The notes: generated from the sequence alone by a model not told the origin. Positions 3,731 to 63,539 are shown, counted from the first letter of the stretch. The stretch is DNA of 64,000 nucleotides from Terriglobia bacterium (GCA_965218055.1 CBDCKA010000002.1:1136514-1200513), one strand, 5' to 3'. Numbers and translations: made by a program.

Positions 3731-3766
3731 TAGTGGGTCAGTTTCCGGGAAGCCGACAATACGTCC
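3731..3766 (+). repeat. dispersed short repeat, type-1 copy A (TAGTGGGTCAGTTTCCGGGAAGCCGACAATACGTCC)
   Basis: Shares the GTGGGTCAGTTTCCGG core with copies at 4575, 29403, 62531 and 63504, and the CCGG-AGCCGAC-ATACG-CC tail with the copy at 12441. Confidence 0.7.
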
Positions 3767-3896
3767 ACTAGCCAAACCTCGGCCAAGGCCAGCGGCCTGT
3801 GTTTGAGGCCGAAAAGGCGCGGCCTTCCAAAACTCGTCTTACTGTCAAGGTCCGGCTGGCAGTTCAGCGGGGAGCGCCTAGAGCGGAAATCTTGAT

Positions 3897-4412
3897 TTAA
3901 TTGAGATTTTCAGGGGGGCCACCACTCCTGCTAAAGCTACGCTCCGCACCCAAGCGCCGCAATTTGTCTCTTAGCGTAGGGAAGCGTCCGAGAAAGGGAA
4001 CAAGGGGAGTTACAGGGATGGTCAGCAGACGTAGATTGCTTATCGCTTTCACACTGGCCGTCCGAACGCGTTCCGGATTCACGATCGCCATCTCGCCAAA
4101 AACCGTCGGAGCATCGAGGATGGCAAGTAATTCGGATGCACCGGTTTGTTCACGATAGATGGCAACCGAGCCCTCTTCCATTAGGTAGAGCTCATTGCCC
4201 ACTTGCCCTTGCCGGATAATGATGGTGCCCGGCTGAACAGTGCGCTCTTCACAGATTAGAGAGATTTCAGCCAGGTCTTCCTCATTTAGTCCCGCAAACC
4301 ATTCAAAGGCACCGAGGCGCGACAATTCCACCTTTTGCTCGCCAGGGATGTTACCCTGACGAAAGTCCGCGTACATTTGCTGCACTCTGTTCACGTTTTC
4401 TTGCTTACTCAT
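3897..4412 (-). CDS. cyclic nucleotide-binding domain protein
   Basis: cNMP-binding beta-roll signature (…GELYLMEEGSVAIY…FGEMAIV…RTASVKA). GAGG lies 8 nt before the ATG at 4412; the ORF is open to 4556. Confidence 0.65.
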   Translation of the reverse strand: MSKQENVNRVQQMYADFRQGNIPGEQKVELSRLGAFEWFAGLNEEDLAEISLICEERTVQPGTIIIRQGQVGNELYLMEEGSVAIYREQTGASELLAILDAPTVFGEMAIVNPERVRTASVKAISNLRLLTIPVTPLVPFLGRFPTLRDKLRRLGAERSFSRSGGPPENLN

Positions 4413-4574
4413 GGTTGGCCTCGATAACTTTCCAGCGCCTACGGACTTGATCCTGGGACTTATCGGCAGAATCCGCAGAAACTTAAGTAGGCTCCTGCGG
4501 CTCTTCTGTGCCGCAACCAGCGCGCAGAACAGCGCTGCCATGGTCGCGGCCAACAACTTTTTAGCTCACCTGAC

Positions 4575-4609
4575 CGCATAACGCCCTTTCCGGAAACTGA
4601 CCCACTACC
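4575..4609 (-). repeat. dispersed short repeat, type-1 copy B (inverted relative to copy A)
   Basis: CGCATAACGCCCTTTCCGGAAACTGACCCACTACC is identical over 35 nt to the copy at 63504-63539. It is the reverse complement of the GGTAGTGGGTCAGTTTCCGG core. Confidence 0.7.
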
Positions 4610-4693
4610 GGAAGCGAACCTTGGCGCGGTGGTCCGATGGTGTCGGCAGCGATTGCCGATGCACAGGCGATTTCCGCAGGATCCGAGCGCAAC

Positions 4694-6202
4694 TTACGAT
4701 TCGGAGGCCGATCCGGAAGCCGCGGTGGCGGTTGAGGAGCGCCCCAGGCGGCGGGAGATTGCTCTTAGCAGGAACCAGATCCCCGCGACTTGCAGTGCCA
4801 TCCCCAAATAAATCTCGGGCACCCCGGCGGGCCCAAGTTGTTTCACGCCGAAGACGGTAAATGGATTTGTCAAAGCATAAAAGGTGGAGCTGGACGGTGC
4901 CCAGACGAGCGCGAGAACACCTCCTAGGATGAAGACTGCCGTGTAATAGAGCAACAGGTAGAAAAGACCCTTGACCAGGGGGCGCTTCATCCGCGTGAGA
5001 TTGCACCATTGAAGGAACAGAATGTCGCGCGATATGAAGAGCAGAAAGACAAGCAGTTGGACGGCTGCCTTTCCGAGGTTCCAATGCGCGAAGGGAATGG
5101 AGTCCCATCCGGCCAGGGCTCGGCCAATCAGGAGGCTGTAAGCTACCAAAGCAGCCATGGCCAACCAGGGCCACGGCAGGCCATCCTCGGACACGTACGT
5201 CACTTCTGCCGCAGCACGCTTACGCCACCACACTTTCAGTTTCTCGCGCGGGACCACGGTTGCCAGACCTAGCAGGAATAGAATTGTCGTGTTCATGGCC
5301 ACCGCAAGAGTGGATGCCTCTTCTGGGGACACCAACGGGACGCCCGTTCGCCGCGAGACCTTCTCCATGTCCAGGAACCCATAGAACAGCGCGTTGAGAA
5401 AAATCGCAAAGCCGAGGGACTGCCACCGGGAAAGGAGCCGGACCTGCTCCAGATCCTTCTTGAAATTCCGCGTCAGCGTCAGGACAAGCCAGGCGCCGAA
5501 GGCGGCATAGAGGAACAGCGTCAAAAATGGGAAAGAACTCGGCATTCCGAATAGTTTGGGCGTCACGCTGGCGATTTTCCCCAGTCCGTAAAGCGAAAAG
5601 AGGGCAGGGAAGATACTGATGGCTCCCGCCCCCGGGAAGGGGCTGTCGGTTAAGCCGAACGTCAGGACAATCGGCAAAAGTGCCAATGCCCCAACGATGC
5701 CGCTCGATTTTTCCCGTAGCAGCGATATCCACAAACCGATCAGGCCCACAAACAGCATCAAGGCCAGCAGCAGGAGGTAGGTCCCAAAAAGCACGCGCAG
5801 CGGGTACCCCGCGAAAATTCCCGCCAGCAGCGAGATTGGCAACATGCAAGCCAGGGAGAAGTAGGCCAGAATGGGCGCGCCCAGAAGCTTTCCAAGCACC
5901 AGCTCGCCTGCGGTCAAGCGGGTGGTTTTCAGAAAGTCGAAGGTCTTCAGTTCCCGCTCGCGCGAAATTGCCTGGCCACAGGCGGAAGCGCACCAAAAAC
6001 CCAGCGCCACGAACTGGATTCCCACCAGCCAGCCATAGAGAGTGCGGGTGAACTGGCGGAAGTTGTCAGGCTCAGCACTCCAGCAGGCCAGCCCCGTGAG
6101 GAGGCAAATCACCAGGACCAGCAGGCCGGTCGTCAGCGCGCGCGCCGGGCGCAATTCGGCCCGGGCGTGCCGCACCAGCTCCGGATTCCGCCAGAACTGC
6201 AC
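4694..6202 (-). CDS. ABC-2 family exporter permease
   Basis: 502-aa polytopic membrane protein that overlaps by 1 nt the upstream ATP-binding protein gene on the same strand. Confidence 0.7.
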   Translation of the reverse strand: MQFWRNPELVRHARAELRPARALTTGLLVLVICLLTGLACWSAEPDNFRQFTRTLYGWLVGIQFVALGFWCASACGQAISRERELKTFDFLKTTRLTAGELVLGKLLGAPILAYFSLACMLPISLLAGIFAGYPLRVLFGTYLLLLALMLFVGLIGLWISLLREKSSGIVGALALLPIVLTFGLTDSPFPGAGAISIFPALFSLYGLGKIASVTPKLFGMPSSFPFLTLFLYAAFGAWLVLTLTRNFKKDLEQVRLLSRWQSLGFAIFLNALFYGFLDMEKVSRRTGVPLVSPEEASTLAVAMNTTILFLLGLATVVPREKLKVWWRKRAAAEVTYVSEDGLPWPWLAMAALVAYSLLIGRALAGWDSIPFAHWNLGKAAVQLLVFLLFISRDILFLQWCNLTRMKRPLVKGLFYLLLYYTAVFILGGVLALVWAPSSSTFYALTNPFTVFGVKQLGPAGVPEIYLGMALQVAGIWFLLRAISRRLGRSSTATAASGSASES

Positions 6203-7310: not shown

Positions 7311-7400
7311 GGAGGAGTGGCCGAGTGGTTGATGGCACTGGTCTTGAAAACCAGCGCACCCGAAAGGGTGTCGGGGGTTCGAATCCCTCCTCCTCCGCCA
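7311..7400 (+). tRNA. tRNA-Ser (anticodon UGA), class II with long variable arm, CCA encoded
   Basis: Cloverleaf folds by hand. The 7-bp acceptor GGAGGAG pairs with CTCCTCC. The anticodon stem CTGGT/ACCAG encloses the loop CTTGAAA. The long variable arm is GCACCC-GAAA-GGGTGT. The T-loop is TTCGAAT, and G plus CCA close the 3' end. Confidence 0.9.
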
Positions 7401-7679: not shown

Positions 7680-8261
7680 ATGAAACGCGCAGCCATCTAC
7701 GCCAGGGTGAGCACCCGGAACGGCCAGCATCCAGAGATGCAACTAGCCGAGTTACGGGCCTACTGCGGCCGGCGCGAGTGGGGGGTTGCCGGGGAGTATG
7801 TGGACCAGGGCATAAGCGGCTCCAAGGAGCAGCGATCGGCCCTGGACCGCCTGCTGGCCGACTGCCGACGCCGCACCGTGGACGCTGTTGTGGTTTACCG
7901 CTATGACCGATTTGCCCGCAGTCTGCGCCAGCTTGTGAACGCCCTGGAGGAATTCCGCTCCCTGGGCGTTGACTTCATCAGCCTGCATGAGGGAGTGGAC
8001 ACCAGCACTCCGAATGGCCGCCTTGTGTTCGGTATCTTCGCCTCGATCGCAGAGTTTCAGCGGGAGTTGATTCGGGAGCGGGTCCGCTCGGGGATTGCAA
8101 CTGCTAGAACCAGAGAGAAAAGGTTGGGCCGTCCTAGGGTGACCGTGGATGCTTCTAGGGTAGCTGTCCTTCGCGCCCAGGGGCTTTCCTGGCGCTCCAT
8201 CGCGGACGAGATGGGCATTGGGCTGGCGACCGCAGTCCGAGCGGTTTCTAAGGCGAGCTGA
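7680..8261 (+). CDS. small serine recombinase (resolvase/invertase family)
   Basis: N-terminal AIYARVST catalytic-Ser motif, a resolvase catalytic domain and a C-terminal HTH. It lies 280 bp downstream of the tRNA-Ser. Confidence 0.9.
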   Translation: MKRAAIYARVSTRNGQHPEMQLAELRAYCGRREWGVAGEYVDQGISGSKEQRSALDRLLADCRRRTVDAVVVYRYDRFARSLRQLVNALEEFRSLGVDFISLHEGVDTSTPNGRLVFGIFASIAEFQRELIRERVRSGIATARTREKRLGRPRVTVDASRVAVLRAQGLSWRSIADEMGIGLATAVRAVSKAS

Positions 8262-8679: not shown

Positions 8680-8839
8680 TCGCCGGCGCGGTCGGAAGTT
8701 GCTGATTCAGCACGCCGCACGAAAAGCCGTTCAGCCGTTCCGAAAACAATTGCTTTTCACACATGGGAGAGGAGCGCTAGCCCGTTTGTGGGGACTATCG
8801 GCCCGTGCGTGAGGTCTACTTCCCCGAAGGCGATCCAAG

Positions 8840-8869
8840 GCACTTGTCCGGTTAGGGCGTTATACGGCC
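8840..8869 (+). repeat. dispersed short repeat, type-2 copy G (GCACTTGTCCGGTTAGGGCGTTATACGGCC)
   Basis: Matches the reverse complement of 12441-12470 in 23 of 30 positions and shares GGGCGTTAT.CG with copies B and E. Confidence 0.6.
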
Positions 8870-9272
8870 ATGTGGCTGGCGTCGGAGCGAGATGCACATG
8901 ATGGCCGACGGGTGGCGCGGAAGTACGGAGGTCGCTATCCGCAGAGGAGACCTATGAGGATCAATCACCAGAGCAGCCCTGAAGCGACTAGACAATTGAC
9001 TCGATTCTGTCGTCTGCAACCGAACCACAGGTTGCTGCGTTCTTGCGACCGAGTATCCACCCGACCTTTCGAGGACCCGCCCCGCCACTCGGCGGGGCCA
9101 AGATGGCCTCGCTACGACTCAAACGGTCCTTCCTGGGGCGGAGAACTTGGGATGGTTGCCGCGTGTTGTCAAGCGGGTCGTGCTGCCCACCCTGAGAGTC
9201 TGGCGGTTCGATCGCCGCAACGCTCCGCGCCCACTCGGGAGTCCTGTAGCCGTCCCCGAAGTGCGGCGGCGG

Positions 9273-10947
9273 TCAATCTCGCCCGGGCGTGCTGTCGGCG
9301 GTGGTCTTCGGCTGGCTCGCCGTGGCGGGTGATGTTGCCGACGGCTGCCGGCTCATGGAAGGGAACAGGGGAGTCACTAGGAAGGGCATTTTCTTTTTGG
9401 CGGTAACCGGTGCGACGGGCTGGCTCCTCATCAGCTCGATCCGGCCACTCCAAGCATCGACTTTGAGGCGTGAGCCGAAGGGAAGGGCAGCGACCTGGTC
9501 AAGGCGATCAGGTTGGAGCTCGGGGATGTGGTTCTTCCGGGTAGCCAAGCGATTGCCCAAGTTGGCACCGAACAAGCTATCCAGGCGGGGGGCGTACTGC
9601 GCCATGGCATGCAGGAACAGGGCAGCGTTGCCCAGACGGTCTTGGTAGGGTGAGTTCTTCAGGAGCTCCATGGCCTTCGCGTCGGCGTCTGCCTCTTTCT
9701 TTCGGGTCGCGGGCGAAATCCAGGTCTTCCAAGAGCTCGTCATCGGACGCCATGAGGCGGTCGTTAAAGGCATACTTGGTATCCGTCGAGTGGCCCAGGA
9801 CCAGATGGGCCAGTTCGTGGGCCAGCATGGCGGCAAGTGCCGCTTCATTAGGGAGGGCATCAATCAGGCCGCGGCTAAGCACGATAGTATGGCCGACGGT
9901 AAAGGACTCGAATGGTAAGGTCAGCATCTCGCGGCAATGGATTGGCGGCAAGTTGTCGAGATGGTTCGTGACCACCAAATTGTTCACGACGGTTTCGAGG
10001 ACCTTGTCAACCTCGCCAGGCGGAGCAATCAGACGCGCTTTTTCCAACCGTTCGAGCACGTTGGCTTCCGCCTCATTCTCCCATTGTCGCATGCTCGCCA
10101 GCGGCGAGATGTCGCCGGCCGTCTCGCTGTTGTCGCGGACGGGCAGGGGCCCATCCACCAGGATGCGGGCCAATTGTTCCTCGCGAGCCGAATTGCTCAG
10201 GTCGTATCCCCAGAAACGTGTTTGCGATCGGAACTCGGATTCTTCGGCATAGACATAGACGGGAAGCCACAGCCCGGGCTGTAGGTTCTGCCGCCAACTG
10301 TCAAAATGGATGTAGAAGTAGAACTTCGGGGGCTTGGTCCGGATGCCCTTGAACCGGACGATGGTGTAATGCTCGTCTTCCACACAGATCCGGCCTTTGA
10401 ACCGCCCGGTTCCCGCGTGACGGCGCGGGCTCACATCAAACAGCAGACAGCGCAGATCGCCCAGAAAGGTGCTCCGCACAAACTGAAACTGGTAATGCTT
10501 GCGATCGAGTCCCTTGTAGTCGACCAGCGAGGCTTGGGCGAAACTGTCAATCTTAATCTTGAACTTGAATAGCCGCCTGACGAAGCTGGGATGGCCAAAC
10601 ATGCGGGACAGCAAACCGACTCGGGGCTTGGGGAGGAATGAGCGTACCTCCACACCTTCGTCAAATTCCAGCTGTCCGAGAAAATATCCGTCGTTGTGCG
10701 GGACAACGCCCCAATCGGGGTCGGGGCGGACTTGCTGAAAGTAGGTCTCAACGCGCGGGCGGTATTTCTGCAGAGTCTGAGCTAACGCGTTCTCACGCGC
10801 CATGATGCGGTCCACCACGGCCCGTACAGCCGGAGACTCCTCCTGCTGAGCCTCCCGCGGCTTCTCCGCCCCACCCTGGCCTTCTCCGGGAAAGAGGAAG
10901 AGTCCCGCCAACAGCCCTACGCTGAGAAAAATCCTGGAATTCGTCAT
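9273..10947 (-). pseudogene. secreted M48-family zinc metallopeptidase (HELAHLVLGH), interrupted by a frameshift near 9700-9730
   Basis: The N-terminal part (ORF 9577-10947) has a signal peptide and the HExxH motif. The downstream protein continues in another frame (ORF 9273-9863: …KKEADADAKAMELLKNSPYQDRLGNAALFLHAM…). The switch maps to the run CGAAAGAAAGAGG. Confidence 0.7.
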
Positions 10948-12044
10948 GAAAGTTCCCCTGAATTGCTAGATGACCCCGCCAATTGAAAGACCACGCGCAA
11001 AGTAGCTGGAAAATCCACTGGTTTCCCGTCACGTCGCGCCGGCTTGAAACGAATGGCCTCCGCGGCCCGGCACGCGGCCTCATCCAGGCCGTAACCCAAG
11101 CCCTCCACCACACGCACCACCTGCAATCTCCCGGAAGCCGTGAAGATCACGGAGAGCACAATCTCACCCTGCAGGCCCAGCTTGCGCGCCGCCTCGGTAT
11201 AAACAGGGTCGGGTTTGAAGAGAATTTCGACCGGCACCAGCGACGGCTTTTCCGGCACGCGCCGGTGCGTCACGGATGTCTGTGCGGCGGGTTTGGGGTC
11301 GAATCCACTTGGCCGCACGACGCCCCGGCTAGCTTCGCCTTGCCCATTGCCGCCCCCACTCGCACTGACGATGCCGTTGCTAAAGCCCGCGCTGGCAACC
11401 GTTCCGCGAGCGCCGGGAGTCCCGCCCGACCCATTTCCATAGCCCCCGCCGGAGGGCAGAGCGAAGGATCCCAATTTGACAACATTGCCCGGATTGCCCC
11501 CCTGGGCGTCCCCGGCGAGGCCGTTGGGGCTGCCAAAACCACCGGTCTGGACTTCGCGCGCCGGAAGCTTCAACGTTGCCACTGCGGCACTGCCTTCAAA
11601 AACACCCACCTTCGGCGGAGGGGAGTGGGGCCTTGGGTCGCCTGGAGTGGGAGCGCTGGGGAAGACCACTCCCACCTTGGGGGGAACCGGCGCCTGCACT
11701 TTGGGCTGTTCGAGGCGCGGAACAGCTCGCAACAGGGGCGCTAGACGCGCCTGGACGGGCGGAAGCGACAGTTTCGGGGCTTCCATCTTCCACACCGGCC
11801 TCGGCGGCATGGGAGCGCGCGCCTGTTGCTTTGGAGGCGTCACCAAATCGATATAGACGGGCGGCGGTTTCTGGTGGACGGTTTCGATGACCGAGGGGAA
11901 CAGGAGACCCAGAACGACAACCAGCCCCAATCCCAAGCCATGGGCGGCAATGCTGACTCCGAACGCACCCCATTGACGTCTGCCCTGGGTGGGCCCGTAC
12001 TCCAGGAGGCTGAAAGGGTGGACACTCCTGCTCTGCACTCGCAC
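10944..12044 (-). CDS. TonB family protein (C-terminal TonB domain)
   Basis: N-terminal TM helix, a Pro-rich spacer and a C-terminal TonB fold (…VEILFKPDPVYTEAARKLGLQGEIVLSVIFTASGRLQVVRVV…). It overlaps the M48 gene by 4 nt. Confidence 0.8.
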   Translation of the reverse strand: MRVQSRSVHPFSLLEYGPTQGRRQWGAFGVSIAAHGLGLGLVVVLGLLFPSVIETVHQKPPPVYIDLVTPPKQQARAPMPPRPVWKMEAPKLSLPPVQARLAPLLRAVPRLEQPKVQAPVPPKVGVVFPSAPTPGDPRPHSPPPKVGVFEGSAAVATLKLPAREVQTGGFGSPNGLAGDAQGGNPGNVVKLGSFALPSGGGYGNGSGGTPGARGTVASAGFSNGIVSASGGGNGQGEASRGVVRPSGFDPKPAAQTSVTHRRVPEKPSLVPVEILFKPDPVYTEAARKLGLQGEIVLSVIFTASGRLQVVRVVEGLGYGLDEAACRAAEAIRFKPARRDGKPVDFPATLRVVFQLAGSSSNSGELS

Positions 12045-12440
12045 TTCACACTCCCGTAGCTGCTTGTCTGGGGGGAATTCAGCCGCCCATCATTCTGTGG
12101 TCGCAGCGTTGAAATGTCAACGCCTGGGAATAGGGTATTGCTTGATGAGACACCGGCCTTCGGCAGTGAGCCAACACTCCCAGGAATCCCCAGGCTGGCG
12201 ATAGGGTGGCGCAGTTAGACTTCCGGTTAACCCGCGAGTCAAGGACAACATGTCCCTCGCTGGGCCCACTTATTTCCTCTCCTTGGCCGTTGCGAGACCC
12301 CACCTTGTCACCAGCGATGCCAGATAGATTGCCCCAATCCCTCAGTTTCTTTCCGATCCTGCTGTCAACTCCCGAATAGTCGCCAACTCAGACACTATCG
12401 CAGCGCTTTGCGGCTCCTCCTCTATCGTCGGCGGACACTT

Positions 12441-12470
12441 GGCCGTATAGTCGGCTATCCGGACAAGTGC
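12441..12470 (-). repeat. dispersed short repeat, type-2 copy F (reverse complement GCACTTGTCCGGATAGCCGACTATACGGCC)
   Basis: Inverted partner of copy G; its tail CCGGATAGCCGACTATACGGCC resembles the tail of copy A, CCGGGAAGCCGACAATACGTCC. Confidence 0.6.
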
Positions 12471-12719
12471 CTACCTGGAGGCGGCGTCACTCAATAGCTG
12501 AGAGCAGATAGGTCCACACAAGTCGGTTGGCGTTTACTTATGCTTTAGGAACGCGCCGGCGAGGCTACAGGTGTCAGGACCAGCCCGAACCGACAGCGCT
12601 CAGCCTGTCGAGGTGAATCGATGCCGTGCCTGGCGCAACGGAGGACCTTGTCGAGTGATTGTGCGCGACTACCGGCTGTCCCTCGATGCCACGATGCACC
12701 GAGGATTCACTAGGGATGT

Positions 12720-13839
12720 TTATCCCGTCACTCCGAGCGGGGAGAAATAGATCATTATGAGAACAATGACCGAAATGATAATCGCCGTGTGGATCACCTC
12801 CTTGTAGCTCCAGCTCGCTCTGGAGAGCGCCCTGTCTTGTGCCAAGGTCGTAGCGTAGGTCAGTCCCCTCAGCCTCTGTTCCGATGGGTTCTCTGTCAGG
12901 AGGCTCACGATGGTCATGATGGCGACGGCGATGAGGAACAAAACTGGCGCAAAGTATAGGAAGTTAATCCTGGCATAGGCATGGAGCAGCGGTACCCCTT
13001 CCACGGGGAAGACCTCGACGGCGAGCTTGCTCATGCCCAGAAGGAAGCCGGCGATCAGCGCCGAGAGGGCGCCCTTGCCGTTGATCCGCTTGAAGAAGAC
13101 GCCGAGCAGGAAGACCGCCGTGATCGGCGGAGCAATATAAGCCTGTACGTTTTGGAGGTACTTATAGAGCGAACTCTCCTCCGACATCCCCTTCAGAATC
13201 GGAATCCAGGCGATCCCCAGGGCGACGACGACCGTCGTGGCGATGCGTCCCACGCGCACCAGCGTCGCCTCGGTGGCTTCGGGTCGGAGCTTCTTGTAGA
13301 TGTCCATGGTGAACAGGGTCGAGCAGCCGTTAAACACCGCAGCCAGCGAGCTCATAAGCGCCGCGATCAAGCCCCCGGCAATGAGTCCCCGCACGCCCAC
13401 CGGGATCAGAGTCCTGACCATTGTAGGGAAGACCTGGTCCGCCGTCTCATAGTGGAGCTTGCCCTGCTTGTTCAGGGCAAAGGCGATGATCCCGGGGACG
13501 AGGAAAATAAAAAATGGGAGAAGTTTCAGGTAGCCCGCAAAGATCGTTCCCCTGCGGGCGTTTGCCTCGTCCTTGGCCGCCAGTGTCCGCTGGACGATGC
13601 ACTGATCGGTGCACCAATACCAAATGCCGACAATGGAGCCAGTAAGCAGGAGGCCGAGCCACGGGAAACTGGAGTCGAGTGGCGGCCACATGTTGAGATG
13701 ATCCTTGCCCACCGTCGACAGCACGTTGTCCCACCCCCCGACCTCCACGATGCCCACGATCGTCACTGTAATCGATCCCAAAATCAGGACGACTACGTGC
13801 ACCGCATCTGTGTACACGATAGCCCGAAGCCCACCGAGT
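12720..13839 (-). pseudogene. sodium:solute symporter (SSS) family transporter, 5'-truncated by the IS3-family insertion at 13840
   Basis: Only 365 aa (about 9 TM helices) of SSS-like sequence remain. The reading frame runs straight into the IS left terminal inverted repeat with no N-terminal third. Confidence 0.7.
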
Positions 13840-13895
13840 GCCCTGGACTGGGTAATTTAGACACTGAGGTTGGGAATTAACTACCCTGGTGTCAT

Positions 13896-14156
13896 ATGAA
13901 CAAAAAACATCATCGTATTGCAGCTGACGTAAAAGCCGATATCCTACGCCGCGTCAAGGAAGAAGGCATCTCGGTGGCCCAGGCCGCCAAGGATCACGGT
14001 ATTTCTGAAGGGAGCATCTATGGTTGGATGGTAAAAGGAGCAACCGGTGCCCCGTCCTGGGCGGAGTTCTCCCGACTTCAGAAGCAGAACAGAGAACTCC
14101 TGGAACTCGTGGGCGAGATCACGCTCAAGCTCTCCATGACTCAAAAAAACAATTGA
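13896..14156 (+). CDS. IS3-family transposase OrfA (HTH)
   Basis: 86-aa HTH protein MNKKHHRIAADVKADILRR…, identical in all copies. Confidence 0.85.
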   Translation: MNKKHHRIAADVKADILRRVKEEGISVAQAAKDHGISEGSIYGWMVKGATGAPSWAEFSRLQKQNRELLELVGEITLKLSMTQKNN

Positions 14157-14941
14157 GCGAAGGAAGAAACAAATCAGCGCTTGCCCGAGCCCTTGGCATA
14201 TCCCGCGCGAGCCTGTATTACGTCCCAAGAATGAAGGAGAAGGACTGGCGCCTCAAGGTCCGCCTGGAAGAAGAGCTGCAGATCCATCCCTCCTACGGCT
14301 CCCGGCGAATTGCTACGGCACTGGGACTCTGCCGCCAGCGGGCGCAGAGGGTCATGCGTCTGTTTGGCATCAAGCCCTACCGCAGGAGAGGCAGAAAATG
14401 GAGAAAATCCAAGGTTTCCCGGACCTATCCCAACCTCCTGCTCGCGCTCATGCCCGCATATGCAAACCACATCTGGGCAACGGACTTCACCGAGTTCGTG
14501 CAGCACGGAAAGAAGGTCTATGTGGCGACCGTGATCGATCTCTACACCCGCCGGATCCTGGGAATCCAGGTTGCGGTGAGAAAGGGAGCCGCGCTCACCA
14601 TTCAGGCGCTTTCCAACGCCCTGCTCCATCATCCGCGCCCGGGTCTATTCCACTCCGACAACGGGAGGGAGTATGACGCGATGGCGTTCACTGAAATCCT
14701 TGATGGATGCGGCATCGTGATTTCACGGAGCCGCCCGGGGTGCCCTTGGGAGAACGGATACCAGGAATCGTTCTACGACAAATTCAAGGTTGACCTGGGA
14801 GATCCGAACCGCTTCAAAACACTGGGGGAGCTAGTGGCGGAGATCTACCGCACCCTGTGGGACTACAACAACACGCGGATTCACTCCGCGCTCAACATGC
14901 CGCCTGTGGTATTCGCCAAACGGTATGCGTTAGTCGCGTAA
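14024..14941 (+). CDS. IS3-family transposase OrfB (DDE integrase domain), expressed as an OrfAB fusion by -1 frameshifting
   Basis: DDE catalytic core (…WATDFTEF…SDNGREYD…ENGYQESFYDKFK…). It is in the -1 frame relative to orfA, overlapping at CAAAAAAAC. Confidence 0.85.
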   Translation: MDGKRSNRCPVLGGVLPTSEAEQRTPGTRGRDHAQALHDSKKQLSEGRNKSALARALGISRASLYYVPRMKEKDWRLKVRLEEELQIHPSYGSRRIATALGLCRQRAQRVMRLFGIKPYRRRGRKWRKSKVSRTYPNLLLALMPAYANHIWATDFTEFVQHGKKVYVATVIDLYTRRILGIQVAVRKGAALTIQALSNALLHHPRPGLFHSDNGREYDAMAFTEILDGCGIVISRSRPGCPWENGYQESFYDKFKVDLGDPNRFKTLGELVAEIYRTLWDYNNTRIHSALNMPPVVFAKRYALVA

Positions 14942-14984
14942 AAAACTCTCAGAATCAGTGTCTAAAGAAATCAGTCCTTGACAC

Positions 14985-15494
14985 TCTGCGCCCGCTGGCG
15001 GCAGAGTCCCAGTGCCGTAGCAATTCGCCGGGAGCCGTAGGAGGGATGGATCTGCAGCTCTTCTTCCAGGCGGACCTTGAGGCGCCAGTCCTTCTCCTTC
15101 ATTCTTGGGACGTAATACAGGCTCGCGCGGGATATGCCAAGGGCTCGGGCAAGCGCTGATTTGTTTCTTCCTTCGCTCAATTGTTTTTTGGGGTCATGGA
15201 GAGCTTGAGCGTGATCTCGCCCACGAGTTCCAGGAGTTCTCTGTTCTGCTTCTGAAGCCGGGAGAACTCCGCCCAGGACGGGGCACCGGTTGCTCCCTTT
15301 ACCATCCAACCATAGATGGTCCCTTCAGAAATACCGTGATCCTTGGCGGCCTGGGCCACCGAGATGCCTTCTTCCTTGACGCGGCGTAGGATATCGGCTT
15401 TTACGTCGGCTGCAATACGATGATGTTTTTTGTTCATATGACACCAGGGTAGTTAATTCCCAACCTCAGTGTCTAAATTACCCAGTCCAGGGCA
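14985..15494 (-). mobile_element. IS3-family element, copy 2: 3'-truncated (510 bp: left terminal repeat + orfA + first 107 codons of orfB), inverted and abutting copy 1
   Basis: The sequence is the reverse complement of the copy-1 left end through its orfB codon 107. The breakpoint sits exactly at the right terminal repeat of copy 1 (…GTCCTTGACA|CTCTGCGCCCG…). The ORFs at 15177-15437 and 14971-15309 are about 96% identical to orfA and the N-terminus of orfB. Confidence 0.85.
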
Positions 15495-15495
15495 C

Positions 15496-27414: not shown

Positions 27415-27456
27415 TGTCAAGGACTGATTTCTTTAGACACTGATTCTGAGAGTTTT

Positions 27457-29325: not shown

Positions 29326-29402
29326 GTGGTGTGTCTCCTTTTCCAAAAGATTCCAGCATTCTACCCTCAGAGGCCGGGATCTCATGACCGACCACTCAGG
29401 GG

Positions 29403-50988: not shown

Positions 50989-51534
50989 TTAGAGCGTCTT
51001 CATGTAGGCGATTACATCCTCCTTTTCTTTCGGGGTAAGGGTGTCCTTGAACGATGGCATCCCTCTGCCTTTCTTATTGAGGATCTCGCGGAGCGTGTCA
51101 TCGGTGGCGTCTTTGCCCCTGCCTTTAAGCCCGGGGCCTTTTAGTTGATAGGTGCTAGTGGCTTCGTGGCAGGCTGCACATTTCCTCAAGAAGACACCCT
51201 TACCAGTTTCGCGGTCTACTTTCGGGAACTCAGACGGGGGAGGAACGGACTTACCGCTTCGTACCAACTCGACGACGAGGTGCGCGATGGAGGAGCGTGA
51301 AGCTGGTTTGATCACGCCGATCACATCTCCCGAAAACACTTCCTGGCCCGCTTCAACGAATACTTCCGAGAGATTTCTGTAGACCAAAAGCTCATCCAAG
51401 TTGCCCTCATCCAGGGTGATCTCGATGGTATGACCCTTGGAGACACGTGAGCCCGGATTTCCTTTATGAACTATCGGCGGCAACCTTCTGAATGACTCCA
51501 ACGTCAGTATTGATGCGGGTTCCAGCATCAACAT
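50989..51534 (-). CDS. degenerate M23 (LytM)-like domain fused to a c-type cytochrome domain; N-terminus probably lost to the IS1380-family insertion
   Basis: …GHTIEITLDEGNLDELLVYRNLSEVFVEAGQEVFSGDVIGVIKPASRSSIAHLVVEL resembles the M23 block …TLYAHLS..V..GQ.V..GQ.IG.VG.TGRSTGPHLHFE but lacks the catalytic His. The C-terminal part carries a CAACHE haem site. No signal peptide is present, and the listed ORF extends into the IS. Confidence 0.55.
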   Translation of the reverse strand: MLMLEPASILTLESFRRLPPIVHKGNPGSRVSKGHTIEITLDEGNLDELLVYRNLSEVFVEAGQEVFSGDVIGVIKPASRSSIAHLVVELVRSGKSVPPPSEFPKVDRETGKGVFLRKCAACHEATSTYQLKGPGLKGRGKDATDDTLREILNKKGRGMPSFKDTLTPKEKEDVIAYMKTL

Positions 51535-51540
51535 TGCCTT

Positions 51541-53110
51541 CCGGAGGTGTACACCGAATGGGTGAGAGCCAAAAACAGGCGTTTCAACTGTCATTCAACC
51601 GGTTTCTGCGGGTCACATTTCAGGGATCGCGAATCACTTCCGACGGCGGTCTGATTCTGGTGCGCGAGTTGGACGAACGTTTGGGGTTCGGCGAACTTAT
51701 CGAACAGCACTTGATCGACTCTCGGGGAAGAACACCCGGTTGCCCCTCGCTGACTTGCTGCGGCAGTCCATCTACAGCCGCTTGGCAGGATACGAAGACG
51801 TCAACGACGCCGAGCGGCTTTCCCAAGATCCGACGTTCCGGCTGATCGGTTCGGAGAAGATCTGGGAACGTGGCGCAGCCCTGACTTCCCGGTTACAGTC
51901 GTTCGAGACAGAACTGCTGACGCAAGACGAGAACCTTGCTGGTTTGGCAGCGATCAACCGGGATTTGATCGCCAGGGCGGAAGCTATGGATGCGCCGCGC
52001 CGGGTGGTGCTGGACATGGACAGCACCGAGATCCCGGTCTACGGGGAGCAGGAACAGAGCGCCTACAACGGGCATTTCGAGTCGAGTTGCTATCACCCGT
52101 TGTTGCTGTTCAGTCGCGAGGGTGACTGTCTGGCGGCCAAGCTGCGACCCGGCAACGTGCACAGCGCCGAGGATTGGGAAGAACTTCTCCTGCCAGAGAT
52201 CGAACGGCAGCAGAAGCTGGGCAAGGAAGTGGTGTTTCGCGCCGACGCCGCCTTCGCCAAGCCGGAGATCTACGACGCACTGGAGGAGCGGGACGTGAAG
52301 TATGCGATTCGCATCCCGGCCAACGACAGTCTGGAGAGGGACATCGCGGAGTTGTTGACGCGGTCAGTGGGGCGACCGAGCCACAAGCCGGTGGTCTGGT
52401 ACAAGAGCTTTCTCTACCAGGCAGCCAGTTGGAAAAAGGCGCGGCGGGTGGTGGCGAAGGTGGAGTTCCACTTTGGCGAACTGTTCCCTCGCGTGGGGTT
52501 CATCGTCACCAATCTGGAGACCGACAGCCGGGCGGTGGTCCGGTTCTACAACAAGCGGGGCACCGCAGAGCAATGGATCAAGGAAGGCAAGCAGGCGGTA
52601 AAGATGACCCGGCTGAGTTGCCATCGGTTTCGGTCGAACGAGGTGCGCCTATGGCTGAGCCTGATCGCCTACAACTTGGGAAACCTGTGGCGGCGGCTGG
52701 TGCTACCGAAGAGGATCAACAACTGGTCGCTGACGAGTTTGCAGCAGCGGCTGGTGAAAACGGGCGGACGGCTGGTGAAACATGCACGATATTACTGGCT
52801 TTTGCTGGCCGAAGGGCACTTGAGCCGGAGGCTGTTCAGCAGCATGCTGCGAACGATCTCGGCACTGCCGCTGCCAGACGGCTAGCGACCCAGGAGAGAG
52901 GGTAATTTTAGGTGCTCAGAAGTGGTCGGGCCGGACAAGTGTCAGCGGCGAGGCAGGCTGGGCAGGCGAAACCCGCACAGCGACTCCGAAGAACAGCCAA
53001 AATGTGCCGCACTACCACCTCAAAGAGGCCCGGGCGATTTGCGATTGACACGACAGGGTACGAGGCATAGGTTTTCGGGTGAAGGGGAAGCTCAAAATGG
53101 AAATTCCGGC
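51541..53110 (+). mobile_element. IS1380-family insertion sequence (about 1.6 kb; ends approximate)
   Basis: The transposase has the IS1380 hallmarks (…TSDGGLILVRELDERLGFGELI…RLAGYEDVNDAERL…YNGHFESSCYHPLLLF…LVKHARYYWLLLAE). The left end is placed near CCGGAGG at 51541. The right end is placed where LOG-gene homology breaks, at about 53095-53115. Confidence 0.55.
51558..52885 (+). pseudogene. IS1380-family DDE transposase, -1 frameshifted at the run GGGGAAGAA (about 51728)
   Basis: The N-terminal 58 codons are in the 51492-frame (MGESQKQAFQLSF…DSRG). The remainder is in the 51740-frame (KNTRLPLADLLRQSIYSRLAGYEDVN…). One missing base would restore the conserved DSRGKNTRLPLADLL. Confidence 0.75.
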
Positions 53111-53315
53111 TTAGATGTCGTGGGATGACGCCGGCGACACTGCCGCCGTGCGCAAGGACGGCATTGGCCAGGACCCCCATCAGCCCGACGCGGGCGCCGC
53201 CGTAAACCAGCCCAATCCCTTCCGTCGCCATCAGGCGGCCCAGGGTCTCGGCCTGTTCGACATACCCCTTCTCGTGTCCGATGTTGCCGGCCAAGTAGAC
53301 GCAGATGTGCTTCAT
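53095..53315 (-). pseudogene. LOG-family protein (cytokinin riboside 5'-monophosphate phosphoribohydrolase-like), 3'-truncated
   Basis: MKHICVYLAGN…VYGGARVGLMGVLANAVLAHGGSVAGVIP matches the LOG GGxxGxMG/PGGxGT blocks. Similarity ends after about 75 codons, at the inferred IS1380 right end. Confidence 0.5.
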
Positions 53316-54247: not shown

Positions 54248-54331
54248 TCGTCTCGTGTTATCGGTCGTAAGCCTTGCCCTGGACTGGGTAATTTAGACAC
54301 TGAGGTTGGGAATTAACTACCCTGGTGTCAT

Positions 54332-54592
54332 ATGAACAAAAAACATCATCGTATTGCAGCTGACGTAAAAGCCGATATCCTACGCCGCGTCAAGGAAGAA
54401 GGCATCTCGGTGGCCCAGGCCGCCAAGGATCACGGTATTTCTGAAGGGAGCATCTATGGTTGGATGGTAAAAGGAGCAACCGGTGCCCCGTCCTGGGCGG
54501 AGTTCTCCCGACTTCAGAAGCAGAACAGAGAACTCCTGGAACTCGTGGGCGAGATCACGCTCAAGCTCTCCATGACTCAAAAAAACAATTGA
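54332..54592 (+). CDS. IS3-family transposase OrfA (copy 4)
   Basis: Identical to copy 1. Confidence 0.85.
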   Translation: MNKKHHRIAADVKADILRRVKEEGISVAQAAKDHGISEGSIYGWMVKGATGAPSWAEFSRLQKQNRELLELVGEITLKLSMTQKNN

Positions 54593-55377
54593 GCGAAGGA
54601 AGAAACAAATCAGCGCTTGCCCGAGCCCTTGGCATATCCCGCGCGAGCCTGTATTACGTCCCAAGAATGAAGGAGAAGGACTGGCGCCTCAAGGTCCGCC
54701 TGGAAGAAGAGCTGCAGATCCATCCCTCCTACGGCTCCCGGCGAATTGCTACGGCACTGGGACTCTGCCGCCAGCGGGCGCAGAGGGTCATGCGTCTGTT
54801 TGGCATCAAGCCCTACCGCAGGAGAGGCAGAAAATGGAGAAAATCCAAGGTTTCCCGGACCTATCCCAACCTCCTGCTCGCGCTCATGCCCGCATATGCA
54901 AACCACATCTGGGCAACGGACTTCACCGAGTTCGTGCAGCACGGAAAGAAGGTCTATGTGGCGACCGTGATCGATCTCTACACCCGCCGGATCCTGGGAA
55001 TCCAGGTTGCGGTGAGAAAGGGAGCCGCGCTCACCATTCAGGCGCTTTCCAACGCCCTGCTCCATCATCCGCGCCCGGGTCTATTCCACTCCGACAACGG
55101 GAGGGAGTATGACGCGATGGCGTTCACTGAAATCCTTGATGGATGCGGCATCGTGATTTCACGGAGCCGCCCGGGGTGCCCTTGGGAGAACGGATACCAG
55201 GAATCGTTCTACGACAAATTCAAGGTTGACCTGGGAGATCCGAACCGCTTCAAAACACTGGGGGAGCTAGTGGCGGAGATCTACCGCACCCTGTGGGACT
55301 ACAACAACACGCGGATTCACTCCGCGCTCAACATGCCGCCTGTGGTATTCGCCAAACGGTATGCGTTAGTCGCGTAA
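54460..55377 (+). CDS. IS3-family transposase OrfB (copy 4)
   Basis: Identical to copy 1. Confidence 0.85.
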   Translation: MDGKRSNRCPVLGGVLPTSEAEQRTPGTRGRDHAQALHDSKKQLSEGRNKSALARALGISRASLYYVPRMKEKDWRLKVRLEEELQIHPSYGSRRIATALGLCRQRAQRVMRLFGIKPYRRRGRKWRKSKVSRTYPNLLLALMPAYANHIWATDFTEFVQHGKKVYVATVIDLYTRRILGIQVAVRKGAALTIQALSNALLHHPRPGLFHSDNGREYDAMAFTEILDGCGIVISRSRPGCPWENGYQESFYDKFKVDLGDPNRFKTLGELVAEIYRTLWDYNNTRIHSALNMPPVVFAKRYALVA

Positions 55378-55406
55378 AAAACTCTCAGAATCAGTGTCTA
55401 AAGAAA

Positions 55407-55922
55407 TCAGTCCTTGACAGCCTCGACACTAACCTCCTCTCCAGCGCCGATTATGGCGACCTCGGAATCGCAGCCCTTGAAACCGAGGAAAGGAATAACG
55501 ACTCCTGTACTTGATAGTGGGAGGGACGGACTGATCACGGACCAAGTGTTGTCGCTGCCCATGTGCTGCACGTAGAAGGTGTCCACCTTCACACAGCCGT
55601 CACCGTCGTCAACGATCTCCCCGTAGCCGAAGCGCTCCTGTTCTGTGGGAGGAAAGTACCAATAATGGACGCCCTTGGCTGCAAATTCTTCGGATTTGAA
55701 TCTGGCCCACATTCCGTCTGCAAAAGAAAACTCCTTTAATTCGCCATCAGGTCCCCTAAGAAAAACGTCGTATTGTGAAGGGGACGAACAGAGGTTGAAG
55801 ACGTGGAACGCCGTGCTCCATCCGACTCCCTGGCGGATGTGGGGAATGAACTGGTTTGACTGCGCGAAAGCGACTGTGGATAAAAGGGACAGCAGGACCG
55901 GCAAGATCAGGATGGGCCTCAT
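55407..55922 (-). CDS. secreted hypothetical protein
   Basis: Signal peptide MRPILILPVLLSLLSTVAFAQ; 171 aa. Confidence 0.5.
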   Translation of the reverse strand: MRPILILPVLLSLLSTVAFAQSNQFIPHIRQGVGWSTAFHVFNLCSSPSQYDVFLRGPDGELKEFSFADGMWARFKSEEFAAKGVHYWYFPPTEQERFGYGEIVDDGDGCVKVDTFYVQHMGSDNTWSVISPSLPLSSTGVVIPFLGFKGCDSEVAIIGAGEEVSVEAVKD

Positions 55923-60688: not shown

Positions 60689-62401
60689 TCACTTGGCCAA
60701 CTCCAATTGCAACTTTCCCTGGATGTGTGCCCGACGAGCTTCCCAGAGAATGACGCCGGTCATGATCAGCAGCAGCAGTGCGCCAATCGCGTTGGCGGCT
60801 GTGACGCCGGCAGCCAGCAACCCCTGGTCCAGCACGGTGCCGCTGAAATTGGCAAACTGGGCGACCAGCGCCCACAGCGAAATCGTCAGCATGAAGAGCA
60901 TAGGCAGGAGGGTGAACCAGTAAGGGCGTCCGGTGCGCATCAACCAGCGGGTCACGGCCAGCAAAGTGAGGGCAGCCAGCAACTGGTTGGAGGTGCCAAA
61001 CAGCGTCCAGAATTTCAGGTAGGCGCCCTTCTCCGCCGTGGCGATGAAAATGTAAGCAGGTAGGAGCGTGATGGCGGTGGCTGCTATCATGCCCCGCTTC
61101 CCTTTCCAGTCGAACAGCTCCAGCACAATGTGGCGGCCCAGACGAGTGGCTACGTCCAGCGTATCAAAGACAAAAGTAGAGAAGGCCATGGTCCCGAAGG
61201 TCACCGCAAACAAACGATGTTTCTCGCCGATGAGGACCGTCAGGAAGGAGCCCAGGCCGTTTCCATAAATGGTCCCCGGCGCCAGGCCGACGGTGTCCTT
61301 CGGCAGCACGATCATGATGGTGGCCAGGGCAATCAGGGCCACAAATCCTTCCAGCAGCATCGCCCCGTAGCCGATGGGCCGACTGTCGGGCTCACAGGCG
61401 ATCTGTTTGGAAGTCGTGCCGGAACAAACCAGGCCGTGGAAGCCGGAACAGGCGCCGCAAGCAATGGTGACAAACAGGAAGGGGAACAGCGGGATCGCCG
61501 AGCCGTCTTTGGCTGTGGCGCTCCAGGTTTTGAATGAGTCCTGGACAACCTCAAAGTTGCCGAAGAACACCCCAAACACTCCCACGGCTAGCGCAGTGTA
61601 AAGGACGAAGCCACCCAGGTACCCCCGGGGTTGCAGCAGCGCCCACACCGGCACCAGCGAGGCCACAAAGCAATAGGCCAGAATCAGCAGGCCCCACATC
61701 TTGACTGGGTTTTGGGAGGCAAAGACGAACAGAGTGGAAATCTTGGTGCTCAGCCACACCAGGACGAATGTGGCCGGGACAAAGGTTACCGTCAGCAGCC
61801 ACAGCGGCGGGTTCCAAAACCTCCGGACCAAGCCCATCACCACGGCCAGCAGCAGATACAGCGTGCTGGCCAGCGCCACGGCTCCGCCAGCATTGAAGGT
61901 GACGTTTTGTAGTGGAAACTCCTGGGTGCGGCCCACAAAGGTGCTGGCGGTGATGTCGGCAAAGGCCACGATGACGTAGATCAGAGCGATCCAGATGAAG
62001 CTCAGCATGGCCCACCAGGCGCGGCGGCTTACGTTCTCTCGCATGATCTCGGCGATCGAGCGCGCCCCGTGACGCAACGAGGCGATGAGGCTGGAGAAAT
62101 CGTGCACCGCGCCAATGAAGATCACCCCCAGGACAATCCACAAAATCGAGGGCAGCCAGCCAAAATAAATGCAGGCAATGATGGGGCCGGCGATGGGCCC
62201 GGCAGCGGCAATGGCAGAGAAATGCTGCCCCAGCAGATAGAAGCGGGGGGTGGGTACGAAATCCACGCCGTCGTTGACGGTGGAGGCGGGAGTGGGCCGG
62301 TTCGGGTCCAGGACCACCAGCCGGGCCACGAATCTTCCGTAGAGGCTGTAGCCGGCGATGAGCAGCAACATCACAATCACCGCGAGCAGCGGCAAGCTCA
62401 T
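60689..62401 (-). CDS. cstA: carbon starvation protein A (CstA family transporter)
   Basis: CstA-family membrane protein; start assigned to MSLPLLAVIV at 62401. Confidence 0.85.
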   Translation of the reverse strand: MSLPLLAVIVMLLLIAGYSLYGRFVARLVVLDPNRPTPASTVNDGVDFVPTPRFYLLGQHFSAIAAAGPIAGPIIACIYFGWLPSILWIVLGVIFIGAVHDFSSLIASLRHGARSIAEIMRENVSRRAWWAMLSFIWIALIYVIVAFADITASTFVGRTQEFPLQNVTFNAGGAVALASTLYLLLAVVMGLVRRFWNPPLWLLTVTFVPATFVLVWLSTKISTLFVFASQNPVKMWGLLILAYCFVASLVPVWALLQPRGYLGGFVLYTALAVGVFGVFFGNFEVVQDSFKTWSATAKDGSAIPLFPFLFVTIACGACSGFHGLVCSGTTSKQIACEPDSRPIGYGAMLLEGFVALIALATIMIVLPKDTVGLAPGTIYGNGLGSFLTVLIGEKHRLFAVTFGTMAFSTFVFDTLDVATRLGRHIVLELFDWKGKRGMIAATAITLLPAYIFIATAEKGAYLKFWTLFGTSNQLLAALTLLAVTRWLMRTGRPYWFTLLPMLFMLTISLWALVAQFANFSGTVLDQGLLAAGVTAANAIGALLLLIMTGVILWEARRAHIQGKLQLELAK

Positions 62402-62530
62402 TCCTGCCCCTTTCCCTAGCTGGCCAAGATTTTCAGACGCCCCTGGCTTCCATCCTATACCGCGAAGTCTCAGCCTTGTCCAAAAGAAAAGCAGGCAAGA
62501 CCGGCGCTCTGTCGGCATTCAAACTGGGTG

Positions 62531-62600
62531 GTGGGTCAGTTTCTGGGAAGCGACTATTCGCCCAACTGAAACCGGGATTGATAAACGCTAGTCCCTTTGT
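62531..62600 (+). repeat. dispersed short repeat, type-1 long copy D
   Basis: GGTGGTGGGTCAGTTTCTGGGAAGCGACTATTCGCCCAACTGAAACCGGGATTGATAAACGCTAGTCCCTT aligns with copy C. Confidence 0.7.
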
Positions 62601-62922
62601 AGGCTAACCTGCCTCCATGTTAGCGCTCTCTCAGGCCGCACTAATTCTCCGAATTCAAATGCTCCCCATTGTGTGCTGCCTGCTTCTGAATATGGGGGAT
62701 CACAGCCTGTCGCCTACCGATAAGGAGGATGTGGCGGCATTGCCCTCTCCGGCAAAGAGAATGAACGCGCCCACCGCCTATACTACAGCGAAAAGTCGGC
62801 GGCTCAAGTTGAGAGTATTGACGTGGAATAGATACAGGAGCGGAGAACGGCGCATCCACGATGAATAGAATGGGTAAGATGTCTGGGCGAAACATACATT
62901 ATTCGGAGAGGACGACCTGTTC

Positions 62923-63399
62923 ATGCCTCTAACTTTTCGTTTTGCCACACCCGTTGATTATGCGCGCGTTGAACAGCTGGCCATCAGCAGCTTCGGGCCC
63001 TTTACTTGGTTCCGCCGGGTTGATGAGAAGTTTGGCTCCTTGAACGGTAAGGACTGGAAGGACCGCTGGAGGCTACGGATGCAGAAGATCTTCGAGACCC
63101 AAATCGTCCTGCTGGCCGAAGCCAACGGGGGGATCGTGGGATTCTCCAGTGGGACCATCGACCTCGAACTTCGGCTGGGCTATGTGGACCTTTTGGCCAT
63201 CGATCCCAAGGCCCAGGGCAAAGGCTATGGGCGACGGCTATTGCACGCTATGCTCCGTACTTTCTTGGATCGTGGCGCTGAGCACGCCTACCTAGACTGC
63301 TTGGTTGAGAACAGTGTCGGTAACACCCTCTATCGCGCCGAAGGATTTGAGGAGGTAGCCCGTTCTATTCGATGGTTCATCAAGATTCGCCCCGAGTAA
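62923..63399 (+). CDS. GNAT-family N-acetyltransferase
   Basis: Acetyl-CoA-binding block …AQGKGYGRRLLHAM…. Confidence 0.8.
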   Translation: MPLTFRFATPVDYARVEQLAISSFGPFTWFRRVDEKFGSLNGKDWKDRWRLRMQKIFETQIVLLAEANGGIVGFSSGTIDLELRLGYVDLLAIDPKAQGKGYGRRLLHAMLRTFLDRGAEHAYLDCLVENSVGNTLYRAEGFEEVARSIRWFIKIRPE

Positions 63400-63503
63400 A
63401 GAGTCGCCTCCTCAGAGGTGGCACCTTCTCGGCCTGCCCGCAGCGAAATCTACCACTGACACTCGGTTAGCGTTCACCTATGCTGTCACTCAGCCTACTT
63501 GGA

Positions 63504-63539
63504 CGCATAACGCCCTTTCCGGAAACTGACCCACTACCT
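63504..63539 (-). repeat. dispersed short repeat, type-1 copy E
   Basis: Identical over 35 nt to copy B (4575-4609). Confidence 0.7.

Follow-up and report, generated by a model that had tools for sequence, protein, structure and literature searches.

Intergenic repeats of Terriglobia as probable ends of a non-autonomous, gene-carrying transposon family

The short dispersed repeats of a 64,000-nucleotide stretch from a Terriglobia bacterium (GCA_965218055.1, CBDCKA010000002.1:1136514-1200513; the whole stretch is hereafter called the window) are very probably the terminal and subterminal sequences of a non-autonomous, cargo-carrying transposon family of Terriglobia that is mobilised in trans. 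The members of this family were inserted with an 8-bp duplication, their sites are empty in relatives, one cassette occupies differing contexts, unlike ends are paired, and no transposase is encoded in cis. The copies in the window are named A to G, and loci outside it are given L numbers. Two intact elements, A/B and D/E, lie in the window, along with an old pair, G/F, that is composite or nested, and a solo end, C.

That a real repeat family had been found was confirmed by counting its matches. The sequence called head-1, GTAGTGGGTCAGTTTCCGG, had five matches with three mismatches or fewer (3730+, 4608-, 29403+, 62528+, and 63537-), compared with 0.02 expected from dinucleotide-preserving shuffles. 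Head-2, GCACTTGTCCGG, was exact at 8840+ and 12470-; a third match with one mismatch (52931), located within an IS1380 element, was at chance level. The original prediction was also right about the 35-nt identity of B and E, TTTCCGGAAA included, and about the stretch of approximately 75 nt shared by C and D. The tandem duplication reported in C is present (CCAGCTGAAACCGAG twice, 29453-29482), with a unit of 15 bp and not 14 bp. The tail said to be shared by all copies had zero matches as written, even when one mismatch was allowed, because the pattern was one position too long and forced 'CG'. After correction to RWAGSSSRYWATDCG, nine matches were obtained against 1.8 expected, and these covered A, B, C, E, F, G, and an inner copy at 12373-12387(-), with D missed because of a 1-nt deletion. 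This inner copy accounts for the degenerate fragment noticed at about 12372-12398, which is present and is a second inner core copy within F. The positions of the copies were correct, and the omitted strands were decisive: B, E, and F are minus-strand copies, which makes the arrangement one of inverted pairs.

The pair A→ ←B (3729-4609, 881 bp) encloses a single gene for a cyclic-nucleotide-binding (cNMP-binding) protein of 171 aa (3897-4412, -; Pfam cNMP_binding, E = 2.4e-17), and D→ ←E (62527-63538, 1012 bp) encloses a single gene for a GNAT acetyltransferase of 158 aa (62923-63399, +; Pfam Acetyltransf_1, E = 3e-13). Approximately 3.6 kb with three open reading frames (ORFs) is enclosed by G→ ←F. 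Over the whole family, the cassettes measure 0.9-5 kb and hold between one and several ordinary genes. The ends of the two intact elements are A (type II, 3729-3775, +; GATAGTGGGTCAGTTTCCGGGAAGCCGACAATACG...), B (type I, 4565-4609, -; GGTAGTGGGTCAGTTTCCGGAAAGGGCGTTATGCG...), D (type II, 62527-62602, +; GGTGGTGGGTCAGTTTCTGGGAAGCGACTATTCGCCCAACTGAAACCGGGATTGATAAACGCTAG), and E (type I, 63463-63538, -; GGTAGTGGGTCAGTTTCCGGAAAGGGCGTTATGCGTCCAAGTAGG...CATAGGTGAACGCTAACCGAG). The termini read 5'-GG…CC-3' and are imperfect inverted ends, and inverted heads were found at both ends of A/B, D/E, L008, L011, L033, L045, and other elements.

When approximately 20 copies of each type were aligned, every end was seen to consist of a terminal head of about 20 nt (GGTAGTGGGTCAGTTTCCGG) followed by a core of about 25 nt. 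The core exists as type I (GGCGTTAT) and type II (GCCGACTAT), with the motifs GGCGTTATRCG and GCCGACTATWCG. Type I ends (B, E, and G) read ...CCGGAAAG-GGCGTTAT-GCG, and type II ends (A, C, D, and F) read ...CCGGGAAG-CCGACTAT-TCG. Every pair in the window has one end of each type, and unlike ends were joined in all ten classifiable pairs from the window and elsewhere. A second conserved block lies 70-100 nt further in, in the main subfamilies (ATAGGTAAACGCTAACCGAC..GACCTATCC in type I and a related form in type II), and the conservation of the ends reaches 110-170 nt. Moreover, the core motif may be repeated within one end, as at 12373-12387 in F, and repeated subterminal motifs of this kind suggest candidate transposase-binding ends. 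Head-2 represents a diverged form of the head, longer by one base, with intermediates in L063. Its description as a second head holds in that it is exact in G and F, but it is not a terminus, since conserved sequence runs further outward from both copies.

Directly outside the GG...CC termini, 8-bp repeats were found. The element D/E is flanked by identical copies of TCAAACTG (62519-62526 and 63539-63546, 8/8), and A/B by GGAAGTGA (3721-3728) and GGAAGCGA (4610-4617), which agree at seven of eight positions and at offset 0 only. Flanking 8-mers were likewise identical at L008 (AAAGCGAG), L011 (GCCCGTCG), L033 (GGTCGGGC), and L045 (CGCTTTGC) and matched at 7/8 at L014 (GAAGGGCT and GAAGGGTT) and L017b (CGCAGCTG and CGCAACTG). 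The tally comprised five pairs with 8/8 (D/E included), three with 7/8 (A/B included), and three with 6/8. The match vanished once a flank was shifted by one base or more, and the frequency of a chance 8/8 match among random 8-mers from the window was 5e-5. The duplicated 8-mers have no common consensus.

Empty sites were found for both intact elements. The ABC permease gene beside A/B has orthologues (86-88% identical) that adjoin the same Rieske/cytochrome b genes in L064, L065, and L067. In these three loci, the permease-Rieske spacer lacks both the cNMP gene and the 881-bp element and contains a single TCGCTTCC; the empty sites align as ...GGTTCGCTTCCGGCCTTCTTGAC..., and the occupied site in the window reads ...GGT(TCGCTTCC)GGTAGTGGG-element-CCCACTATC(TCACTTCC)GGCCTTC.... 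The element A/B was thus inserted cleanly, duplicating 8 bp. The closer relatives L059-L061 hold the cNMP cassette at the same site as the window. The element D/E is missing from L068, whose cstA is 97% identical and whose upstream sequence aligns across the junction after 62527-63546 is removed, in a comparison covering only about 60 nt beyond that junction.

The cNMP cassette was also found in differing contexts. In L015, an A end and the cNMP gene (90% nucleotide identity) lie within unrelated flanks, and in L071 and L072 a second copy of the cassette, with a B-type end, lies between other genes; the samples of these two loci also contain the Rieske-site copy. The sample of L067, in which the Rieske site is empty, has the cNMP gene elsewhere, in L070. 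Homologues of the cNMP protein with 78-96% identity occur in at least four other genomic contexts.

The L068 comparison bears as well on the idea that the repeats are transcription-factor binding sites or promoter elements regulating adjacent genes. It had been pointed out that C and D lie upstream of two gene starts, that at 29325 and that of cstA; the distances are 75-126 nt (126 nt between D/E and cstA), and the head, in which there is a dyad, shows conservation across species. Against regulation, a relative has cstA without the element, the neighbouring genes have no common function, half of the copies are oriented towards gene 3' ends, and promoter-like matches were no higher than in shuffles, the promoter and terminator scans giving chance-level results. 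The position of C and D is explained by insertion, because the elements insert in intergenic DNA. Accordingly, a regulatory role as the nature of the repeats is highly improbable, and a secondary effect of an insertion on expression, for example of D/E on cstA, is possible.

The original prediction had also likened the family to repetitive extragenic palindromic (REP) sequences or MITEs (miniature transposable elements with inverted repeats). The transposon part of this suggestion holds, as the copies are transposon ends; they are not stand-alone miniatures, REP hairpins, or regulatory sites. Palindromes of the REP type or of bacterial interspersed mosaic elements (BIMEs), which a RAYT transposase would maintain or which would act as hairpins in RNA, would likewise be intergenic, in both orientations, and marked by a short palindrome such as TTTCCGGAAA. 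Conserved stem-loops gave no signal in eight folds over six ends (D and E on both strands): no stable hairpin was found on either strand, with fold z-scores from +0.19 to -1.91. Furthermore, the inverted pairs bound genes, with 8-bp duplications and empty sites, and no RAYT-type (Y1 transposase) family was among those reported for the scanned ORFs, which in a scan of 141 ORFs were the 25 most frequent. Thus, there is next to no chance that these are REP or BIME sequences. The same folds concern the proposal that the conserved ends of 110-170 nt encode a structured small RNA, such as a guide or regulatory RNA of the element. Conservation does extend well past the first 45 nt across genomes. However, no end matched Rfam (at gathering score the window gave tRNA-Ser only, and 62400-63700 gave none at E<=1), the folding energy was not above that of shuffles, and a candidate stem in E was, by eye, not kept in the other copies, so an RNA of this kind is very improbable.

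The same ends were found across other Terriglobia contigs. A 20-mer from the head was located at 28 loci in a scan of 185,579 species genomes, 18 of them in Terriglobia/Acidobacteriota assemblies with up to six per genome. The remaining 10 are scattered over phyla without the rest of the repeat, and about nine chance matches were estimated. The metagenome scan added 26 loci, mainly from soil and freshwater sediment and nearly all family members. The head is present in at least eight Terriglobia genomes and approximately 20 metagenome contigs. A BLAST search of a plasmid collection with both end types gave no match, a viral-contig scan gave four matches, all by chance, and a full-text literature search with the head sequence found nothing relevant. 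Exact-sequence look-ups of the cNMP-binding and GNAT proteins of the window found no record of either.

At least nine further cassettes with other cargo are bounded by these ends on other Terriglobia contigs, and at least 11 distinct cargo sets were counted over several species. The cargo includes a three-gene ABC-3C defence system (L033, a 3.46-kb element with a perfect duplication), an NmrA-like reductase (L045), an OmpA-family protein (L007 and L019), a cytochrome c (L023), a TetR regulator (L049), PIN or toxin-antitoxin genes (L041 and L047), hydrolases with a ferritin-like protein (L042), and a large Ig-repeat protein (L039). In the window, the segment between G and F (8885-12329) contains three ORFs, none for a transposase: one of 178 aa without a family match, and those for a BlaR1-like M48 peptidase and a TonB_C protein.

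When the cargo ORFs were searched with Pfam and NCBIfam, the transposases inside cassettes were nested IS1380 and IS30 copies only. Among the 25 most frequent Pfam families of the 141 ORFs, which came from 33 non-redundant loci, IS1380 (three ORFs) and rve (two ORFs) were the only recurrent transposase families. The hunt also took in BLAST clustering of all ORFs and 20 further ORFs of the window, and the elements met were IS1380, IS30, IS3, IS21, IS1182, and IS110 only. The ends inspected, namely those of IS1380, IS1182, the IS3 element of the window, and one end of an IS21-like copy, were unrelated to the cassette head. Large single ORFs in L008 and L017 were considered as novel transposases and set aside, as they encode a methyltransferase-like membrane protein and an unknown protein, respectively, and are not DDE-like.

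The IS1380 family was weighed separately as the supplier of the transposase. Transposase genes or fragments of this family lie in or near the cassettes of L011, L014, L015, L017, and L019, and the window has an IS1380-family element at 51443-53110. However, the ends of that element, CCCGGATTTCC...GGAAATCCGGG (CC...GG; also given as CCCGGATTTCC...GGAAATTCCGG), are unrelated to the head, IS1380 elements make duplications of 4-5 bp and not 8, and in L015 the cNMP gene is interrupted. Since its ends are unlike the head and it interrupts cargo in L015, the element is an independent insertion sequence (IS), and its role as the source of the transposase is barely plausible. The piece in L015 (2638-2750) that interrupts the cNMP cassette is 99% identical, and further relatives lie inside or beside cassettes at L011 2862-4006, L014 3062-3823, and L019 6884-8000. 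A solitary sequence resembling an IS1380 terminus, CCGGAATTTCCATTATGACC, was found at 21536-21564 of the window, in the gap between a carboxypeptidase-regulatory-domain gene (20752-21423) and the 3' end of a dicarboxylate symporter gene (21776-23194, -); it is an inverted match to 53086-53114. In L070, a type II end is followed inward, after approximately 360 nt, by an IS110-family transposase gene (DEDD_Tnp_IS110, 586-2002); repeated sequences are frequent targets of IS110 elements.

A transposase encoded elsewhere would bind the core repeats, cut at the GG/CC termini, and join them over an 8-bp staggered target cut. A DDE-type enzyme is probable, as duplications of fixed length but arbitrary sequence are the hallmark of DDE chemistry. 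By the ISfinder family descriptions, a GGnnnTG terminus with an 8-bp duplication would fit IS1 or IS1595 (ISPna2 group); IS6, ISL3, IS256, and ISH6 would be a less specific fit.

Not all ends are as simple as those of A/B and D/E. End G (8775-8884, +) is composite, with an outer part (8775-8835) like the type II second block and an inner part formed by head-2 and a type I core (8840-8866). End F (12330-12565, -) is also composite, with an inner head-2 and type II core (12444-12470), the second core at 12373-12387, and an outer part (12475-12565) resembling the type I second block. An architecture like that of G, in which the second block of the other end type lies outside head-2, was also found in L062 and L063. 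Because G and F form the inner units of ends that are composite or nested, neither the true termini nor the duplication of this pair can be placed; the best flank offset gave 6/8. End C (29402-29553, +), a solo type II end with the 15-bp tandem duplication, has no partner in the window and is followed by a 1-Cys peroxiredoxin gene. Its site (29394-29432) corresponds to L017 332-370, the same insertion point in two species with a flank identity of 88.7%. The interiors diverge about 30 nt into the end, and L017 holds a complete element of 1234 bp. Similarly, L039 (reverse strand) and L040 (5164-5763) have a common flank and head, and L039 is longer by 7.08 kb. The genes of this extra segment encode an Ig-repeat protein of 1476 aa and a regulator of 645 aa, and the segment lies between copies of a 13-bp direct repeat, GGGAAGGCGACTT, which is part of the end core. 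In L002 and L014, which represent different species, the element lies in opposite orientations at the same target site.

Two further arrangements were observed. Outward-facing ends stand back to back exactly 8 bp apart in L062 (about 441-472, CTTGCGGG) and L070 (about 5286-5315, CTGGCGGG), and this spacer equals the length of the target duplication; the abutted ends might have arisen by tandem insertion into a duplication that was already there, or they might represent a junction of the dimer type. On the minus strand of L041, three type I core-plus-tail units (about 4962, 5953, and 6912) are arranged in one orientation approximately 950 bp apart, with apparent toxin-antitoxin ORFs, as judged by eye, between them. 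In one of these units, head and core are separated by an insertion of 40 nt, and another has an unrelated head; the region recurs in L031, L034, L043, and L051.

Several of these results weigh against a transposon family mobilised in trans. Genome and metagenome scans and context look-ups over approximately 40 loci gave no autonomous copy or candidate transposase, which leaves transposition in trans as an inference. The pairs in L023 and L037 have no duplication. The head is absent or variant in some ends (G/F, L041, and L042), conserved sequence lies outside head-2, a simple two-end model fails for some copies, and conserved ends of 110-170 nt exceed the strict need of a transposase. Finally, the loci with the same site and different interiors (C and L017; L039 and L040) require additional recombination.

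Such loci, together with the orientation flip and the ends abutted at exactly 8 bp, hint at cassette-shuttling without a conventional parent IS, through an unrecognised enzyme or a transposase family outside Pfam and NCBIfam that acts on two unlike ends. In this reading, which is unlikely, cargo would also be swapped or inverted at fixed sites, besides the transposition of whole cassettes with 8-bp duplications. If true, it would make the family a transposition-based analogue that Acidobacteriota have of integrons, with a possible distant relationship to the orphan Correia elements.

A related proposal is that the segments are invertible or exchangeable and that the repeats are sites of a site-specific recombinase, for example, the serine recombinase encoded at 7680-8261. 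Inverted repeats do flank genes, the gene of this resolvase is 575 nt away from G on the outer side, L063 has another resolvase gene near an end, the orientations in L002 and L014 are opposite at the same target, and two loci have a common site with a differing interior. However, arbitrary 8-bp duplications and empty sites indicate transposition and not conservative recombination, the resolvase of the window has no homologue in the other Terriglobia loci (L001-L054), and homologous recombination between inverted repeats of 45-120 bp can also cause inversion. Thus, recombinase sites are a very unlikely explanation of the repeats, and it is equally unlikely that inversion or exchange of the cassettes is steered by the difference between type I and type II cores, although a site-specific step of this kind may form a second layer over transposition.

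Integron-type gene cassettes with attC-like sites would account for cargo such as GNAT, toxin-antitoxin genes, and small unknown ORFs and for the three evenly oriented units in L041, where the motifs GTTAGGC and GCCTAAC were also found. Nevertheless, a pattern scan found no R''-L''...L'-R' architecture in L031, L041, or the window, the ends are inverted rather than direct, target duplications are present, and no IntI-type integrase was seen beside the arrays. An integron origin is, therefore, scarcely credible, and a non-autonomous transposon family mobilised in trans is retained as the explanation.

Other mobile DNA was observed around the elements. The serine recombinase gene near G, which encodes 193 aa, follows a tRNA-Ser gene (7311-7400). 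The corresponding place in close relatives (L059/L061 4526-5449) holds a tyrosine integrase and several IS elements; hence, it looks like an integration hot spot. An IS3-family IS of 1146 bp is present in three identical copies (13839-14984, +; 27414-28559, -; 54274-55419, +) and encodes a 305-aa rve transposase (NCBIfam transpos_IS3). A partial, inverted copy of 518 bp lies at 14979-15496. This fragment and the second copy bracket approximately 12 kb with a MobA/MobL relaxase gene (15469-16629) and a run of ORFs without family match; this region is possibly a composite transposon or a mobilisable element that has become integrated. Within the MobA/MobL ORF, a 32-nt stretch (16233-16339) is repeated with a spacing of 75 bp and 84% identity.

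Acidobacteriota are abundant in soil, and their mobile DNA is poorly described. The family is a route by which intact accessory genes, including the three-gene ABC-3C system, toxin-antitoxin pairs, signalling proteins, and acetyltransferases, are shuffled within and between Terriglobia genomes. In the window, the genes for the cNMP-binding and GNAT proteins were inserted recently, and the insertion of D/E split cstA from its former upstream region. The family also explains repeats that annotation pipelines otherwise leave as unexplained intergenic conservation, and its ends provide a sequence handle on the missing transposase and on whole-gene capture between transposon ends in bacteria.

Among known systems, mobile insertion cassettes (MICs), of which MIC231 of Bacillus cereus is an example, and transporter insertion sequences (tIS) likewise have IS-type inverted ends around transposase-less passenger genes, make target duplications, and move in trans. 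The term tIS denotes IS derivatives with passenger genes (PMC7986276). Compared with MICs and tIS, the ends of this family are long (110-170 nt), unlike on the left and right, and carry repeated internal motifs; no parent IS was recognised for the Terriglobia cassettes, and the cargo sets are at least 11. Correia elements are 100-155 bp long, have no cargo, and duplicate TA. As a MITE of Neisseria, the Correia element likewise has short conserved inverted ends of two kinds, is intergenic, and is an orphan of a known transposase, whereas the Terriglobia elements bear genes and have 8-bp duplications. In the Correia repeats TATAGTGGATTAA...CCGGTACGG and ...TCAGGACAA (PMC5039591), as in the head, TAGTGG and CCGG stand in the same order; this resemblance is weak, as 26 of 5000 shuffles did as well as the best pair, in a comparison selected post hoc. 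The Terriglobia cassettes are not MITEs in the sense of non-coding elements under about 500 bp, since the smallest pairs measure 768-1012 bp and bear genes, and none without cargo was seen.

Tn3-type ends are 38 bp long, begin with GGGG, and are accompanied by 5-bp duplications. Neither such ends nor this duplication length fits the Terriglobia family, although the Tn3-derived inverted-repeat miniature elements (TIMEs) and mosaic Tn3-derived non-autonomous transposons likewise mobilise intervening host genes (PMC4133298). The Pack-MULE and Pack-TYPE elements of plants (PMC6379663) also have long inverted ends, captured genes, non-autonomous movement, and many cargoes per family. Those are eukaryotic and carry mostly gene fragments, whereas whole genes and operons are carried here. 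Mutator-like elements (MULEs) make duplications of 8-11 bp. The GGTAGTG/GGCAGTG terminus and the 8-bp duplication would agree with the ISfinder descriptions of IS1, IS1595, IS6, ISL3, IS256, and ISH6, but a transposase of these groups was found in none of the loci; the IS1 terminus is GGnnnTG, that of IS1595/ISPna2 is GGCnnTG, and IS1595 groups are known to carry passenger genes. Integron cassettes are likewise small, promoter-poor single-gene units with accessory cargo, but the Terriglobia cassettes have no attC sites and do have inverted ends and target duplications. Taken together, the Terriglobia cassettes, with no autonomous partner so far, long unlike ends, and a notable breadth of cargo, are a new family within a known kind.

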